A DNA stretch of 64,000 nucleotides, from the sequence record PV467749.1, one strand, 5' to 3'. The position numbers and the translations under genes are program-made. This document shows, piece after piece, positions 940 to 16,939 of this stretch; within the stretch, counting starts at the first letter, position 1, and the number at the start of each line of letters is the position of its first letter. This stretch comes from a phage. A model generated the notes under the pieces. That model did not search any database. It was given only the letters and a program-made list of their open reading frames with translations, and was not told the DNA's origin.

Positions 940-948
940 ATTAATATG

Positions 949-978
949 CCAGTACTTGAGTACTGGCTTTTCTTTTTG
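949..978 (+). terminator. Intrinsic terminator: hairpin CCAGTACTTGAGTACTGG + T-run
   Basis: Perfect inverted repeat CCAGTACT/AGTACTGG with 2-nt loop followed by CTTTTCTTTTTG, 10 nt after stop at 937-939. Confidence 0.65.
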
Positions 979-984
979 TATTAA

Positions 985-1012
985 ATATAGTATAATGAAT
1001 AAGGGAGGAAAT
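985..1012 (+). promoter_or_regulatory. Cassette promoter-like element (TATAAT 991-996) + RBS AAGGGAGG (1001-1008)
   Basis: Conserved TAAATATAGTATAATGAATAAAGGAGG block present before most array genes; no canonical -35 at 17 bp. Confidence 0.5.
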
Positions 1013-2122
1013 ATGTTACCTTTTGTAAGAATGGTTAAGTACGGGAATATTGCACCAGTACCGAAAAAAATAAAGAAAGTTATAGCAGGATATGATAATT
1101 TATATGTACTATATGGTGATGGTTCGCTATATGGTTGTGGAATCAATAACTATCAACAGTTAAATATTGATGGAACTGCTACACAAAATAATTGGGTACT
1201 AATTACCAATGGTGTTAGTAATGCATGGGCTGGTGGATACAATATTTTATATTTGAAAGAAGATAAATTTATAATGCACGGAACTAATGTCTCATTAGGT
1301 TTAGGAAATACTACAATTCCATTAGGTGGAGTAGATGTAACTTCTTCATTCCCAGATATCTCTAATATTAAAATGATATCCATTGGTTTTGATTCAATGC
1401 ACTATGTTAGTGCTGATGGTACAACTGTATATGGAAGAGGTATGAACACAAATGGTTCTGTTGGTTCAGGTAGTACTTACTCACAGAGTACTTTCACTTC
1501 AGTACTGAATAATGGAACTAATCAGGTTATTGATATATTTGGTAACGTTAATAATACAGTGCTTCTAACATCGAATGGTGAGCTTCGAGCATGTGGGACA
1601 AGTGCTTATGGTTCTATAGGAAATGAAACTGGTAAGTGGACATCGTTTGGTTTAAAATTATCTGGCACTAAAATAATGGGTGGTAATGGGTATAGTACGC
1701 TTGCATATACAAATTCGGGAATGTACCACTCAGGGTGGCAGTTAAATGGGGAACTAGGAAATGGTTTAAATACTAACGTACAGGTATATCCATTTCAATT
1801 TAACTCTAAAACGATAGATAGCAAGATAGATAAAATTGCCAAATCATCATCTGGGTCATATGTTAACATGTACTCAACAACAGAAGGAAAGATATATACG
1901 ACAGGTTCGTTTGGTAAAAACGGGTCAACTACTGCATTGAATTTGTTCACCAATACATTAACACTTATAAATTACAATCCAGATACCGCCTCGTTGTATA
2001 CGTGCACAAACTTCAGTGTTGTGTATGATGGTAATGAAACTATTGCTGTAAGTGGTAGTCCTACATATGTACCAGGGGGCGTTGCCGCTAATAGATGGAC
2101 TACAATTCCATTACCCAAGTAA
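1013..2122 (+). CDS. RCC1-like repeat beta-propeller protein, array member 2 (N-term MLPFVRMVKYGNIAP)
   Basis: Start moved from track ORF 878 to ATG 1013 (conserved MLPF start, RBS AAGGGAGG 5 nt upstream; upstream part of ORF translates the terminator/promoter); RCC1-like repeats. Confidence 0.85.
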   Translation: MLPFVRMVKYGNIAPVPKKIKKVIAGYDNLYVLYGDGSLYGCGINNYQQLNIDGTATQNNWVLITNGVSNAWAGGYNILYLKEDKFIMHGTNVSLGLGNTTIPLGGVDVTSSFPDISNIKMISIGFDSMHYVSADGTTVYGRGMNTNGSVGSGSTYSQSTFTSVLNNGTNQVIDIFGNVNNTVLLTSNGELRACGTSAYGSIGNETGKWTSFGLKLSGTKIMGGNGYSTLAYTNSGMYHSGWQLNGELGNGLNTNVQVYPFQFNSKTIDSKIDKIAKSSSGSYVNMYSTTEGKIYTTGSFGKNGSTTALNLFTNTLTLINYNPDTASLYTCTNFSVVYDGNETIAVSGSPTYVPGGVAANRWTTIPLPK

Positions 2123-2129
2123 TACTATG

Positions 2130-2155
2130 CCAGTACTTGATACTGGCTTTTTTTT
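2130..2155 (+). terminator. Intrinsic terminator: hairpin CCAGTACTTGATACTGG + T9
   Basis: Inverted repeat CCAGTA/TACTGG then CTTTTTTTTT, immediately after stop 2120-2122. Confidence 0.65.
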
Positions 2156-2161
2156 GATTAA

Positions 2162-2190
2162 ATATAGTATAATGAATAAAGGAGGGAATT
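2162..2190 (+). promoter_or_regulatory. Cassette promoter-like element (TATAAT 2168-2173) + RBS AAAGGAGGG (2178-2186)
   Basis: Conserved intercistronic block. Confidence 0.5.
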
Positions 2191-14333: not shown

Positions 14334-14338
14334 ATTAA

Positions 14339-14367
14339 ATATAGTATAATGAATAAAGGAGGGAAAT
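14339..14367 (+). promoter_or_regulatory. Cassette promoter-like element (TATAAT 14345-14350) + RBS AAAGGAGGG (14355-14363)
   Basis: Conserved intercistronic block. Confidence 0.5.
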
Positions 14368-15717
14368 ATGTTACCTTTTGTTAGAATGTTTGATTATGGG
14401 AATACAGTAGATGTTCCAACTGTAAAGAAATTCGACTCCATTGGTATGGGTCATGATAGGAATGGTGGTGGTAATTGGTTTGGTGCAATATTAGCATCAA
14501 ATGGAAATTTATATGGTATTGGTCAAACAAAATATGTTTCTTTTGGTATAACACCAACCAATGGTACAGGAATTGAATTAGTACGAAAAAATGTAAACAA
14601 TTTTTGGCTACTATCAAATGGAATAATAGTTAAAGATAATGATGGTTCATATCATTTTTGTGGTGTATATGCAAATGGAATATTCACACATTCAAGTATA
14701 ACTACAGCACCTTTTATAACAAATGGTTTTATAAATGTATCTTCTTATTTTTCTAACGTAGGTGAAGTTGTGGAAATGGTATTCTGTGGTGGATATGATA
14801 AAGGTCCAGCAACATCATTAACCCCAGCATACACTTCAAAATATAGTTGTATTTTGGCAGCATTGAACACTAATGGTGAAATCTGGTATATGGGTTTGTC
14901 GATACAAGGTTTAATAAACAACTCCACATCAGATTACTACTTTACTTCTTTTACTAAAGATAATCAATTGACACAAAAAGCAGTTTCATTAAGATGCACA
15001 ATAGACATGTCACATAATAATGTGTATTTTGTTGGTAATAGACCTGTACTTTATGCCAAATTAGAAGATGGTACAATCGTAGGCAAGGGATATAATATAC
15101 GATATGGTATACAAAAACCAGCTAGTACAAACCAAGTGATTAAAACGTGGACTACAGTGGCTGTAATCGGAACAGCAGATGATTTTGATGCAACAAACGA
15201 AGGCATGATGTACTGCTCAAATTCACAACTATATCGCTGTGGTAATGGTGGTGGTTTTTCTTTCTGGAATGGTACAAGTAGTGTGTATTATATGGGCTAC
15301 AACGTTGGTATGTTTCTAATCGGTGCGAATGACGTCAACCGTGTAGCGGGTGGTTTTAACGTCCTAACTACAGGGATTAAAGATGATGTAGGTATAAATG
15401 TACCAACTTCATCCAGTACCAAAATACGAATGAACTACTGTGGAACTGTAATTTTTGAACCCGGAACAACATCAATATATAAAGCACATGGTGTTTATAG
15501 TGATTACTATGCTAGTCCTTCATGGCAAGCGGGAGCAGTCGCTTCATTTACATATGAAGACATTGGTATTAAAATCAAAGATGCTATGTATGTTGGTGGT
15601 ACTCTTGGGTTTACAACATATGGATTATTAGTGGTTAGTACTGAAGGTAAGGTATATTGGAGAGGTGTGTACAACGGTGTAACATATAAAACACTCACAG
15701 AAATACATTTGTTGTAA
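14368..15717 (+). CDS. Array member 13 (N-term MLPFVRMFDYGN), divergent 449-aa body
   Basis: Conserved N-terminal dodecapeptide and cassette leader; body longer and less regular, but keeps repeat-like motifs (LYGIGQTKYVSFG, LYRCGNGGGFSFWNG). Confidence 0.8.
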   Translation: MLPFVRMFDYGNTVDVPTVKKFDSIGMGHDRNGGGNWFGAILASNGNLYGIGQTKYVSFGITPTNGTGIELVRKNVNNFWLLSNGIIVKDNDGSYHFCGVYANGIFTHSSITTAPFITNGFINVSSYFSNVGEVVEMVFCGGYDKGPATSLTPAYTSKYSCILAALNTNGEIWYMGLSIQGLINNSTSDYYFTSFTKDNQLTQKAVSLRCTIDMSHNNVYFVGNRPVLYAKLEDGTIVGKGYNIRYGIQKPASTNQVIKTWTTVAVIGTADDFDATNEGMMYCSNSQLYRCGNGGGFSFWNGTSSVYYMGYNVGMFLIGANDVNRVAGGFNVLTTGIKDDVGINVPTSSSTKIRMNYCGTVIFEPGTTSIYKAHGVYSDYYASPSWQAGAVASFTYEDIGIKIKDAMYVGGTLGFTTYGLLVVSTEGKVYWRGVYNGVTYKTLTEIHLL

Positions 15718-15723
15718 TATAGT

Positions 15724-15753
15724 GCCAGTACTCTGTACTGGCTTTTCTTTTTG
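15724..15753 (+). terminator. Intrinsic terminator: hairpin GCCAGTACTCTGTACTGGC + T-run
   Basis: After stop 15715-15717. Confidence 0.65.
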
Positions 15754-15759
15754 TATTAA

Positions 15760-15787
15760 ATATAGTATAATGAATAAAGGAGGAATT
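15760..15787 (+). promoter_or_regulatory. Cassette promoter-like element (TATAAT 15766-15771) + RBS AAAGGAGG (15776-15783)
   Basis: Conserved intercistronic block. Confidence 0.5.
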
Positions 15788-16939
15788 ATGTTACCTTTTG
15801 CAAGAATGGTTAAGTACGGGAATATTTCACCTGTTCCTGCAACACCAACTATAAAAGATTTTAAGATTGGTTTTACCCATGAAGTGTTATTGGACAGTGC
15901 AGGTGATGTGTGGGGTATTGGATATAATACCGCTGGACAGTTGGGATTTCTGGATGCTAACACAAATTCAATAGGAATGTGGTCTAAGATACATGAGAAT
16001 GTTAGATTAATTGGCGTTACTGCCAAATATACTGTAGTTGTTACAAATGATAATAGAATACTTTACGCCGGAAATAACTTAATTTCTAGTACTACAACGC
16101 TTGGGTGGAACGATATAACGTCCAGTATGGGAGAGGTTGCAGTGGATAGTATAGATACATTATATTGCACAGATGGAATGATGCATATTAAAACTGCTGA
16201 TGGCTCTTTATATGCATATGGACGTAATATGAACGCGAACGCTGGAGTTACAGGCGTTTCTGGCGTTATTAGTGTTGCAACTAAAGTTAATGGTTTACCA
16301 TCGGCAGTGAAGGATATACGATATACGTTTAGTTATGGTTCAGTACTATGCCAATTTGATACCACTTCGGTATATGGATGGGGAAGAAATGTCAATGGTG
16401 AATTAGGTCAGGGGAATGCAGCCGCAGTTCCTGCCCCATACCTATTGGCGGGAGCTTCTATTGTTATAGGTACTTCTTATAATGCTACTGCCATTGTTTC
16501 TGGTACTGGAACGTTAGTTACATGTGGTGGACAAAATAATGGTCAGTTAGGTAATGGTATTACTACTGCTGGTAATGTATACATATATGGTGCTAGGTCA
16601 TACCCTGGCGATCTTAATAATATAAGAAGTCCAGTAGATTGTAGTACAACTTATACTTCCGCATTTATGAGTACAGATGGTATATATTACACGGGTTCGA
16701 ACCGAAGTGTTTTTGGTGGTGCGAGTGGTTCTGCTACTGTTGCATTATATACTAAATGTAGTGATTTGCCAATATTATATTCCAATATAACTCAGTGGGG
16801 TAGTGGTACTATTGGTGGGGCGATATGTAGCAGAACTGAATTATATCAGTGTGGTACAGGTAGATACATTGCCGGAGATGGACAGAACGCAACTAGGTAT
16901 GGGTTTAGAAAGACACCATTACCTTGGGATGTTTATTGA
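15788..16939 (+). CDS. RCC1-like repeat beta-propeller protein, array member 14 (N-term MLPFARMVKYGNISP)
   Basis: Start moved from track ORF 15722 to ATG 15788; 383 aa; motifs VWGIGYNTAGQLGF, VYGWGRNVNGELGQGN, TCGGQNNGQLGNG. Confidence 0.85.
   Translation: MLPFARMVKYGNISPVPATPTIKDFKIGFTHEVLLDSAGDVWGIGYNTAGQLGFLDANTNSIGMWSKIHENVRLIGVTAKYTVVVTNDNRILYAGNNLISSTTTLGWNDITSSMGEVAVDSIDTLYCTDGMMHIKTADGSLYAYGRNMNANAGVTGVSGVISVATKVNGLPSAVKDIRYTFSYGSVLCQFDTTSVYGWGRNVNGELGQGNAAAVPAPYLLAGASIVIGTSYNATAIVSGTGTLVTCGGQNNGQLGNGITTAGNVYIYGARSYPGDLNNIRSPVDCSTTYTSAFMSTDGIYYTGSNRSVFGGASGSATVALYTKCSDLPILYSNITQWGSGTIGGAICSRTELYQCGTGRYIAGDGQNATRYGFRKTPLPWDVY

Follow-up and report, generated by a model that had tools for sequence, protein, structure and literature searches.

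Junctions between tandem RCC1-like propeller genes of an Asteriusvirus jumbo phage: putative late transcription units and sites of cassette recombination

In T4-like phages, promoter-early stem-loops (PeSLs) were described as mobile regulatory cassettes, whose recombination causes insertions and deletions (indels), replacements and mini-circles (Arbiol et al., 2010, PMC2839356; Comeau et al., 2014, PMC4122927). PeSLs are the closest described system to the element analyzed here, a short junction recurring between tandem genes for RCC1-like beta-propellers in a 64,000-nucleotide stretch of phage DNA from the record PV467749.1 (hereafter "the window"). Both are small intergenic elements combining a stem-loop terminator with a promoter and ending in a Shine-Dalgarno (SD) sequence and a start codon, both occur in many repeats within a hyperplastic region, and in both cases the end points of indels and replacements between close relatives fall into the motifs. 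Likewise, both can be read as homologous recombination sites that insulate the expression of each gene. PeSLs, however, contain a full sigma70 early promoter (-35, -10 and AT-rich upstream region) with the stem-loop overlapping or inside the promoter, whereas the array junction features a canonical terminator upstream of a late-type box without -35 element and, consequently, falls outside the sigma70-early definition. Furthermore, PeSLs flank unrelated ORFans, whereas the array junction flanks paralogues of one virion protein family and reaches 36–39 nt into the coding sequence, so that exchanges stay in frame and swap N-terminal alleles. PeSLs are further characterized by termination at the stem-loop and promoter activity (reporter assays) and by mini-circles, which were shown to arise from PeSL-PeSL recombination; for the array junctions, termination and promoter activity are predictions.

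A second point of reference is the late promoter of phage T4 (TATAAATA, dependent on gp55, gp33 and gp45), which resembles the junction in being an AT-rich, -10-only element located without a -35 region in front of virion genes. An ATAAATA late motif resembling the T4 late consensus was also reported for the Rak2-like phages CBB and GAP32 (PMC5259590). In comparison to the late motifs of T4, CBB and GAP32, the junction carries T or G in place of a consensus A and an additional TATAAT 3 nt downstream, and it may also differ in its reader. No description of the junction was found in the papers on phAPEC6, CBB, fEgEco12, Sharanji and UE-S1 or in the other literature searched; the GenBank record of UE-S1 labels two junctions as "repeat_region" and some hairpins as "terminator" without comment.

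Our analysis suggests as the likely explanation that the portable junction of ~110 bp serves both as an insulated late transcription unit and as a homologous recombination site between tandem paralogues of ancient divergence, which encode RCC1-like propellers of ~370–450 amino acids (aa) acting as minor virion proteins. According to this model, the hairpin would terminate the upstream transcript and the adjacent box would initiate late transcription under the control of a gp55-like sigma factor, so that each gene with a full junction would represent an insulated late unit whose expression is left unchanged by insertion or removal of a neighbor. As the sole long homology between otherwise unalignable genes, the near-identical junctions would also be the place where homologous recombination resolves, within one genome as well as between co-infecting relatives. 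Expected outcomes would be the in-frame gain, loss, replacement and reordering of cassettes, along with a homogenization of the junctions themselves.

The stretch 900-19000 of the window matched Asteriusvirus records only (PBECO4-, 121Q-, phAPEC6- and WPEC3-like) with up to 98–99% identity, and the best DNA matches of the window were 37 Asteriusvirus records; PBECO4-, 121Q-, phAPEC6- and WPEC3-like phages are jumbo coliphages of ~350 kb. From the left edge to position 18825, the + strand contains 15 RCC1-like propeller genes in tandem (cassette order O A B C D E F G H I J K L M N). The starts of 14 genes read ATGTTACCTTT(T/C), encoding MLPF(V/A)R(M/L)(F/V)(D/K)YGN, and the gene bodies share ~50% identity on the DNA and 22% on the protein level (protein range 18–35%). 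Because the bodies are this diverged, recent tandem duplication was ruled out as the source of the junction identity.

Within 940-15790, we found 13 junctions, comprising ten full blocks, one variant and two bare SD gaps. The full block of ~110 bp is composed of a GCCAGTAC-loop-GTACTGGC hairpin, a T-run, TTAAATATAGTATAAT, AGGAGG and an ATG with 12 conserved codons, and was found at the ATGs 1013, 2191, 3389, 4582, 9370, 10613, 11864, 13113, 14368 and 15788. At the variant junction (ATG 5838), the hairpin has an 8-nt loop and is combined with the variant TAAATACATTATAAT. At ten junctions and the variant, hairpin, T-run, promoter-like box, AGGAGG and ATG are thus packed in ~70 nt, and the ATGs 6979 and 8190 are preceded by an SD gap of only 8–10 nt without hairpin or promoter-like box. 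The initial annotation of this DNA, which had proposed that the same block recurs between most members, is borne out by these data, and the strings it quoted were recovered at their positions. Its view of every gene as an autonomous cassette applies to most genes (ten full, one variant), but not to E, F and G with their SD-only joints. Since these three are joined by 8–10 nt gaps lacking hairpin and promoter-like box, they must be co-transcribed as a predicted three-gene operon.

In an alignment of all 14 gene starts, the block spans about -72 to +39 relative to the ATG with a mean gapped pairwise identity of 87%, rising to 94.5% over -40 to -1, which agrees with the near-identity over ~100 bp claimed before. 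The 16-nt core TTAAATATAGTATAAT is present in exactly ten copies, all on the + strand between 981 and 15771, the 37-mer promoter/ribosome-binding site (RBS) block TTGATTAAATATAGTATAATGAATAAAGGAGGGAATT has seven matches at no more than three mismatches (0 expected), and CCAGTA-N(2-12)-TACTGG was found 11 times (0.05 expected), exclusively on the + strand within 949-18853. Since a scan of IMG/VR with a junction 26-mer returned the 121Q array as the sole match, the block appears to be restricted to the genus and to the array. No RNA family was matched in an Rfam search of 1-19000. The features of the array are as follows:

25-939, + strand: cassette O, RCC1-like propeller gene (Pfam RCC1/RCC1_2), 5' end outside the window
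940-1051, + strand: junction O>A; hairpin 948-967, T-run 968-977, TTAAATATAGTATAAT 981-996, SD, ATG 1013; free energy (ΔG) -13.2
1013-2122, + strand: cassette A, 369 aa, RCC1-like seven-bladed propeller (Pfam, AlphaFold (AF2), Foldseek)
2123-2229, + strand: junction A>B; hairpin 2129-2147, T8, promoter-like box 2158-2173, SD 2181-2185, ATG 2191
2191-3318, + strand: cassette B, 375 aa (open reading frame (ORF), Pfam)
3319-3427, + strand: junction B>C; hairpin 3326-3344, T9, box 3356-3371, ATG 3389
3389-4510, + strand: cassette C, 373 aa (ORF)
4511-4620, + strand: junction C>D, recombinant; hairpin 4515-4538 with left arm GGTCAGTAC, box 4549-4564, ATG 4582
4582-5763, + strand: cassette D, 393 aa (ORF, Pfam)
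5764-5876, + strand: variant junction D>E; hairpin 5766-5795 (8-nt loop), T7, GTAAATACATTATAAT 5801-5816, SD GGAG, ATG 5838; ΔG -15.0
5838-9299, + strand: cassettes E (5838-6968), F (6979-8181) and G (8190-9299) with 10-nt and 8-nt SD-only joints
9300-9408, + strand: junction G>H; hairpin 9306-9324, box 9337-9352, ATG 9370
9370-10539, + strand: cassette H, 389 aa, type shared with phAPEC6 gp010 (virion-detected)
10540-10651, + strand: junction H>I; hairpin 10547-10565, box 10580-10595, ATG 10613
10613-11792, + strand: cassette I, split by a frameshift; frame 0 stop at 10792, frame +1 open from ~10704 to 11792
11793-11902, + strand: junction I>J; hairpin 11797-11822, box 11831-11846, ATG 11864; ΔG -16.2
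11864-13042, + strand: cassette J, 392 aa (ORF)
13043-13151, + strand: junction J>K; hairpin 13047-13069, box 13081-13096, ATG 13113
13113-14288, + strand: cassette K, 391 aa, type shared with phAPEC6 gp006 (virion-detected)
14289-14406, + strand: junction K>L; degraded hairpin ~14304-14322 (ΔG -5.4), box 14335-14350, ATG 14368
14368-15717, + strand: cassette L, 449 aa, no Pfam hit, PHROG 4219 match
15718-15826, + strand: junction L>M; hairpin 15724-15742, box 15756-15771, ATG 15788
15788-16939, + strand: cassette M, 383 aa, type shared with phAPEC6 gp005 (virion-detected)
16943-16968, + strand: terminator hairpin after M of the CCAGTAC..GTACTGG type, recurrent homology breakpoint (16941/16974)
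16973-17623, - strand: ORF of 216 aa between M and N, PHROG 34359, unknown function
17669-18856, + strand: last cassette N; variant box TTAAATAAAGTATAAC 17669-17684, ATG 17701, stop 18825, hairpin 18830-18856

Cassette O opens the array in most relatives, and its type was matched in UE-S1, WPEC3, EC.P1 and fEgEco12. For cassette K, the mechanical ORF start at 13047 was rejected, as it falls inside the hairpin, and 13113 is the true ATG. The hairpin 18830-18856 at the end of the array scored as terminator-like on both strands and faces a convergent minus-strand block.

With regard to individual cassettes, WPEC3 from Thailand, EC.P1 from China and PBECO4 from Korea (96.6% identical) have the same frameshift in cassette I as the window. 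Frame 0 runs into a stop at nt 177, and an open frame +1 covers nt 92–1177; the overlap contains A5 and T6 runs, and the downstream 362 codons are free of stops in all four phages. Cassette I represents either an inherited pseudogene, or a case of programmed frameshifting or of an internal start. The position of the minus-strand ORF 16973-17623 between the last two cassettes is conserved in WPEC3, EC.P1 and fEgEco12.

On the protein level, Pfam RCC1/RCC1_2 repeats scored above the cut-offs in six of seven members tested, and PHROG 4219 was matched by all three proteins tested. For cassette A, an AlphaFold model based on the aligned 13 intact paralogues of the window displayed a seven-bladed propeller (predicted local distance difference test (pLDDT) 81.8, predicted template modeling score (pTM) 0.83), and Foldseek returned UVR8 with a template modeling (TM) score of 0.80 (probability 1.00) as well as the RCC1-like domains (RLDs) of RCC1, RPGR and HERC2 with 0.65–0.70. 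The likeness to RLD propellers such as RCC1, UVR8 and HERC2 lies in the seven blades of RCC1 repeats; a guanine nucleotide exchange factor or chromatin function is not indicated for the phage proteins by this analysis. RCC1-like proteins of Rak2-like phages are usually annotated as "DNA condensation protein". In contrast to RCC1, UVR8 and HERC2, the phage propellers are virion-associated and feature a unique, predicted disordered N-terminal MLPFxRMxxYGN. Residues 1–16 of cassette A, which contain this conserved motif, are located outside the propeller with a pLDDT below 50, and the peptide could act as a virion-docking or targeting signal. Among the viral structural neighbors are tail-fiber proteins with such a propeller from the Pseudomonas phages Littlefix and PollyC; on this basis, "DNA condensation" is no more plausible than a function in binding or as an adhesin. 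The presence of array proteins in virions is documented for phAPEC6, where gp003, 005, 006, 007, 009 and 010 were detected in the virion proteome by mass spectrometry (PMC7247149, Table 1). Three of these six proteins are orthologues of the window cassettes H, K and M, and the other three also belong to the array; gp1 of GAP32 is likewise a virion protein (PMC5259590).

A related array exists in Salmonella phage Munch, a member of a different genus-level cluster with ~29% average nucleotide identity to fEgEco12. Here, the region 336080-350103 contains at least 12 RCC1-like homologues starting with MIPF(A/T)RILxYGN. Most of the Munch array genes overlap by ATGA, i.e., they are translationally coupled, and have no junction, and five junctions consist of a hairpin, a T-run and (A/G)(A/G)TTAAATATA(G/A/T)TATAAT (the TTAAATATAnTATAAT box), followed by a different RBS region. 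The promoter box is hence conserved in Munch while the RBS region diverged, and the first array gene carries GGGTAAATATGATATAATGA, which shares a stretch of 20 identical nt with the box of the first gene in Asteriusvirus arrays. The Munch stems differ by compensatory changes (GGCTAGTAC..GTACTAGCC and GACAGTAC..GTACTGTC). Since the N-terminal motif is kept with synonymous differences in Munch, it is also selected at the protein level.

The box in the window junctions reads TTAAATA or GTAAATA, three nucleotides and TATAAT. As the initial annotation had stated, a canonical -35 element is missing: the best match to TTGACA reached at most 3/6 at spacers of 15–19, and the T-run occupies the -35 position. 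TGn before TATAAT is absent at every junction, with TAG being found instead. Based on this, the extended -10 class was rejected, as was a canonical sigma70 promoter, for which a scan of 1-19000 gave no excess (80 sites versus 93 in shuffles), with none at the junctions among the 60 strongest of the 80 sites. A T4 MotA-box middle promoter was rejected as well, considering that a GCTTT-like string lies ~18 nt from the -10 element and the spacing expected for this class is 11–13 nt.

What is conserved instead is a two-part motif. In ten phages, every junction variant contains TAAATA, 3 nt and TATAA(T/C) with varying spacers (TAG, CAT, CTA, TGA, AAG), and the junction sequences ATTAAATA or TGTAAATA match the T4 late consensus at 6/8 positions with an invariant TAAATA core. 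In the replication and structural modules of phAPEC6, (T)ATAAATA is located 17–50 nt upstream of the genes for the major capsid, scaffold/protease, baseplate wedge, endonuclease VII and others, accompanied by the NTAAATA variants CTAAATA (before TerL and gp228, both genuine late genes), GTAAATA (gp223, gp247) and TTAAATA (gp250), and GTGnTATAAT precedes several genes, including replication genes and the late-sigma gene. Over 49 kb of phAPEC6, all six TATAAATA sites and 13 of 17 ATAAATA sites lie 10–75 nt upstream of a start on the same strand (0.1 and 0.4 expected, respectively). Outside the arrays, TAAATA-N(2-4)-TATAAT occurred three times in the 190 kb examined, each time before a gene of a PHROG virion-structural family (window 47334-48491, phAPEC6 gp231 and phAPEC6 gp179c). 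Because TAAATA is invariant, the same motif precedes virion-family genes and array products are found in virions, the junction box is predicted to be a late-class, TATAAATA-like promoter of the T4 gp55 type, whose reader is probably a gp55-like late sigma factor. Outside the window, phAPEC6 gp237c is annotated in GenBank as "sigma factor for late transcription". Given its extra TATAAT, the junction promoter may also be a dual promoter or belong to a special subclass.

The first of the three genes, 47334-48491 (+ strand, 385 aa, phrog_10468, a virion structural family), is preceded by ATAAATACGTTATAAT (TAAATA-N3-TATAAT; stretch from 47297) and is the sole long (at least 90 aa), non-overlapping + strand ORF in the minus-strand block of 19–64 kb. 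TATAAATA itself is depleted in the window, with three copies versus 11.5 expected and at least three in every shuffle. All three (29050-29057, 30292-30299 and 56159-56166, - strand) are located on the coding strand, two of them just upstream of genes, namely 29861-30259 and 27517-29028, whose 503-aa product falls into a PHROG family of virion structural proteins. With coding-strand copies sitting before genes there, late genes appear to be scattered within the early block.

Alternatively, and as initially proposed, TATAAT could act as a -10-only promoter of the sigma70 type. Its reader would be the host core polymerase carrying the RpoD-like phage sigma factor of 41594-42559, or else a sigma70 holoenzyme that the phage has modified, and the array would then be middle-class rather than late. 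This is unlikely in our view, even though the TATAAT is perfect and is kept across all junction variants and in Munch, is lacking downstream in most late promoters of the genus, and would suit a sigma factor like that of 41594-42559, in which Pfam detected sigma70 regions 2 and 3 but no region 4 and which would hence fit recognition without a -35. The other -35-less promoters of the genus, i.e., those of replication genes and the late-sigma gene, read GTGnTATAAT, whereas the junctions carry TAG; TAAATA at its fixed 3-nt distance is as invariant as TATAAT; the two-part motif elsewhere precedes only genes of PHROG virion-structural families; and array products are present in virions. The conservation of TATAAT thus stands, but the key element is more likely TAAATA-N3-TATAAT, and the sigma factor 41594-42559, located in the early block, is a less likely reader of a late-type junction than a gp55-like sigma factor.

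In favor of the terminator function, the array hairpins agree with the definition of intrinsic terminators (G+C stem of at least 5 bp, short loop, U-run, position past the stop codon). They represent a palindrome CCAGTACTGG split by a loop of 3–8 nt and followed by a T-run on the coding strand, and are located 4–10 nt past the stop codon. Stems of 7–12 bp with a ΔG of -10 to -16 kcal/mol and T-runs of 7–10 nt were found for 12 of 13 hairpins, the degraded one being K>L before ATG 14368 (ΔG -5.4 kcal/mol), and the region 1-19000 contains 25 terminator-like sites versus 7.3 expected. Furthermore, the outer stem pairs covary over 99 hairpins, with pair 3 being GC in 76, TA in 9, AT in 4, GT in 7 and unpaired in 3. 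A different possibility is that the hairpins are not terminators, but that long read-through RNAs are formed in which CCAGTAC..GTACTGG acts as 3' stabilizer or RNA processing site, or that it is a protein-binding site on the DNA. Support for this comes from E, F and G and many Munch genes, which are co-transcribed without hairpins, and from the hairpin core, a split form of the palindrome AGTACT/CAGTACTG, whose 9- to 38-fold excess over the whole genome, within genes in all frames, argues for a role on the DNA level beyond termination. We nevertheless regard this as quite unlikely, considering that each array hairpin is followed by the coding-strand T-run at the distance given above, that the split form is confined to the array, that outer stem pairs show compensatory changes, and that stem energy and geometry are typical of canonical intrinsic terminators.

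The palindrome deserves a separate description. No hexamer in the window is more over-represented than AGTACT (184 copies versus ~20 expected, 9.1-fold; positions including 1500, 19737, 21444, 24352 ... 60450), with other NGTACN hexamers being just 1–2.3-fold enriched, and CAGTACTG is present in 37 copies versus ~1 expected, its flanks favoring CCAGTACTGG. In genes, AGTACT occurs in all three reading frames (36/29/20), with 2.4 copies per kb of coding DNA and 4.5 per kb of non-coding DNA. Some of the copies directly adjoin -10 boxes of early promoters (CAGTACTGTATAAT), and the array terminator hairpin corresponds to an AGTACT-type palindrome split by the loop. The hexamer reaches the same enrichment in 121Q, phAPEC6 and Salmonella phage Munch; the 150–199 kb region of 121Q, which was checked for structural genes and contained only small hypothetical ORFs, served for this count. 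Nothing on the AGTACT palindrome was found in the phage literature searched.

Because the junction hairpin is a split CCAGTACTGG, which is 9- to 38-fold over-represented genome-wide and in the sister genus, a more speculative scenario is that the array forms a plug-and-play library of virion-displayed binding modules docked via MLPFxRMxxYGN, with module exchange being not just driven by homology but targeted through CCAGTACTGG as the recognition site of a phage protein. We consider this quite unlikely; within such a scenario, a phage protein that binds, nicks or recombines DNA could use CCAGTACTGG as its site and turn the junctions into hot spots.

Returning to the junctions as homologous recombination sites, we compared the array to those of nine relatives, typing cassette bodies at a threshold of at least 85% identity over at least 80% coverage. 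This yielded 35 cassette types among 127 cassettes in ten phages, with differing cassette numbers and no order being identical between two phages, as anticipated by the earlier suggestion to compare related genomes for cassette number and order. WPEC3, for example, has the order O A D E F G H I T R S M U L V N, in which L and M are reversed relative to the window. In any relative record, no more than 41% of the array was covered in one collinear place; the adjacent 21 kb were covered to 100% at 98.9% identity in WPEC3 and to at least 80% in nine records.

Breakpoints were defined as the internal ends of megablast high-scoring segment pairs against the window (at least 400 bp, at least 90% identity), leaving out phage CMSTMSU with its shortened homopolymers and fragmented ORFs. 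Of 43 breakpoints, 35 were located at -74 to -10 or +12 to +54 of a cassette ATG, eight at the hairpin after M and none in gene bodies (nominal binomial P 7e-26, the events being not independent as the genomes share ancestry). For 14 of the 19 cassette types seen at least three times, the same body was combined with different N-terminal alleles across phages (VRMFDY, ARMVKY, GRMVKY and others). Cassette D has a main-type junction in the window and an E-type junction in four relatives, and the C>D hairpin of the window retains the E-type left arm GGTCAGTAC before a main-type remainder; hence, a crossover took place inside this hairpin. Moreover, neutral-looking spacer variants are genome-specific and common to non-orthologous junctions: the variant TTTCTTATTTGTA (including one-base ATT-/GGA- forms in 121Q and phAPEC6) was found at 5/6 junctions of PBECO4, 5/9 of 121Q and 5/8 of phAPEC6, compared to 0/11 in the window, 0/10 in WPEC3 and 0/10 in EC.P1, a pattern that reads as a signature of concerted evolution. 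The combination of a hypervariable array, junction-bound breakpoints, mosaic junctions and genome-specific spacers strongly supports a role of the junctions as homologous recombination sites for cassette gain, loss and shuffling, in line with the initial annotation, which had named them a recombination substrate. That the junction is instead kept only by purifying selection on regulatory signals and the N-terminal peptide, with cassette differences arising from illegitimate events or whole-array inheritance, would agree with the promoter box being conserved across genera and with the persistence of M(L/I)PFx(R/K)(M/I)xxYGN as a protein motif, encoded with synonymous differences, even where Munch junctions lack the DNA block, but is very unlikely in view of non-functional positions (T-run spacer, bases before TAAATA and post-SD spacing) following genome-specific variants across non-orthologous junctions, the N-terminal alleles being decoupled from bodies in those 14 types, the switch of junction type inside one hairpin, and the coincidence of 43/43 breakpoints with junction or hairpin edges.

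Apart from its exclusion above, the CMSTMSU record (MH494197, flagged UNVERIFIED_ORG) displays systematically shortened homopolymers in the junction T-tracts and fragmented RCC1 ORFs, which suggests that it contains sequencing errors.

Several points weigh against the interpretation of the junctions as late transcription units and recombination sites. Two window junctions and many in Munch function without the block, which is hence optional for the expression of array members. The box TTAAATA/GTAAATA deviates from the consensus (T)ATAAATA, and the adjacent perfect TATAAT is absent from most late promoters of the genus, so that the junction may belong to a different promoter class. Moreover, gp237c has no Pfam hit, its gp55-like identity resting on the GenBank annotation and the CBB paper, and homologues of gp33 and gp45 were reported to be missing in the related phage CBB (PMC5259590). 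No Asteriusvirus transcriptome was found in the searched literature, and initiation and termination at the junctions are predictions. Peptide counts of RCC1 proteins in virions were low (1–4 peptides; PMC7247149). Concerning recombination, breakpoint counts are inflated by the common ancestry of the relatives, and selection against chimeric propellers would likewise purge intragenic breakpoints.

The proposed model would extend the PeSL principle, i.e., regulatory cassettes doubling as recombination sites, from early ORFan regions to a late-expressed virion protein family in 350-kb jumbo phages. Since the recombining unit includes the first 12 codons, swaps would always be in frame. This could account for the variability of the "RCC1 / DNA condensation" genes, which exceeds that of every other block among otherwise near-identical Asteriusvirus isolates, many of which are under characterization for therapy, and it provides a potential handle for engineering, as any propeller could be inserted between two junctions. 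By analogy to some tail-fiber propellers, virion-exposed propellers would fit binding modules rather than chromatin regulators. In addition, the analysis yields TAAATA-N3-TATAAT as a predicted late-promoter variant.

Regarding the surroundings of the array, ~20 tandem minus-strand ORFs of 58–70 aa each are located directly upstream of the arrays in WPEC3 (3000-7200 of the retrieved stretch) and 121Q (900-4800). This run diverges from the first array gene, corresponds to a position just beyond the left edge of the window and may be a second paralogous array. On the other side of the array, seven consecutive minus-strand ORFs at 18862-21301 (104–123 aa) were considered as paralogues, but showed no detectable relationship.

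The minus-strand early region of the window contains clear sigma70 promoters, several of which are embedded in hairpins. Here, seven copies of GGTTGACTTCGGTC(A/G)(A/G)CC were found on the - strand (22185-22202, 26807-26824, 27489-27506, 29070-29087, 29849-29866, 33444-33461 and 41568-41585), and at least four of them continue with a T-run and then (C)TATAAT. In these composites, a TTGACT -35 element is located inside the stem of a GGTTGACTTCGGTCAGCC hairpin terminator, with the -10 element 17–18 nt downstream, and by their architecture they are classed as predicted classic PeSL-type promoter/terminator composites. The collinearity of many relatives with the window starts at ~22138, adjoining the copy at 22185.

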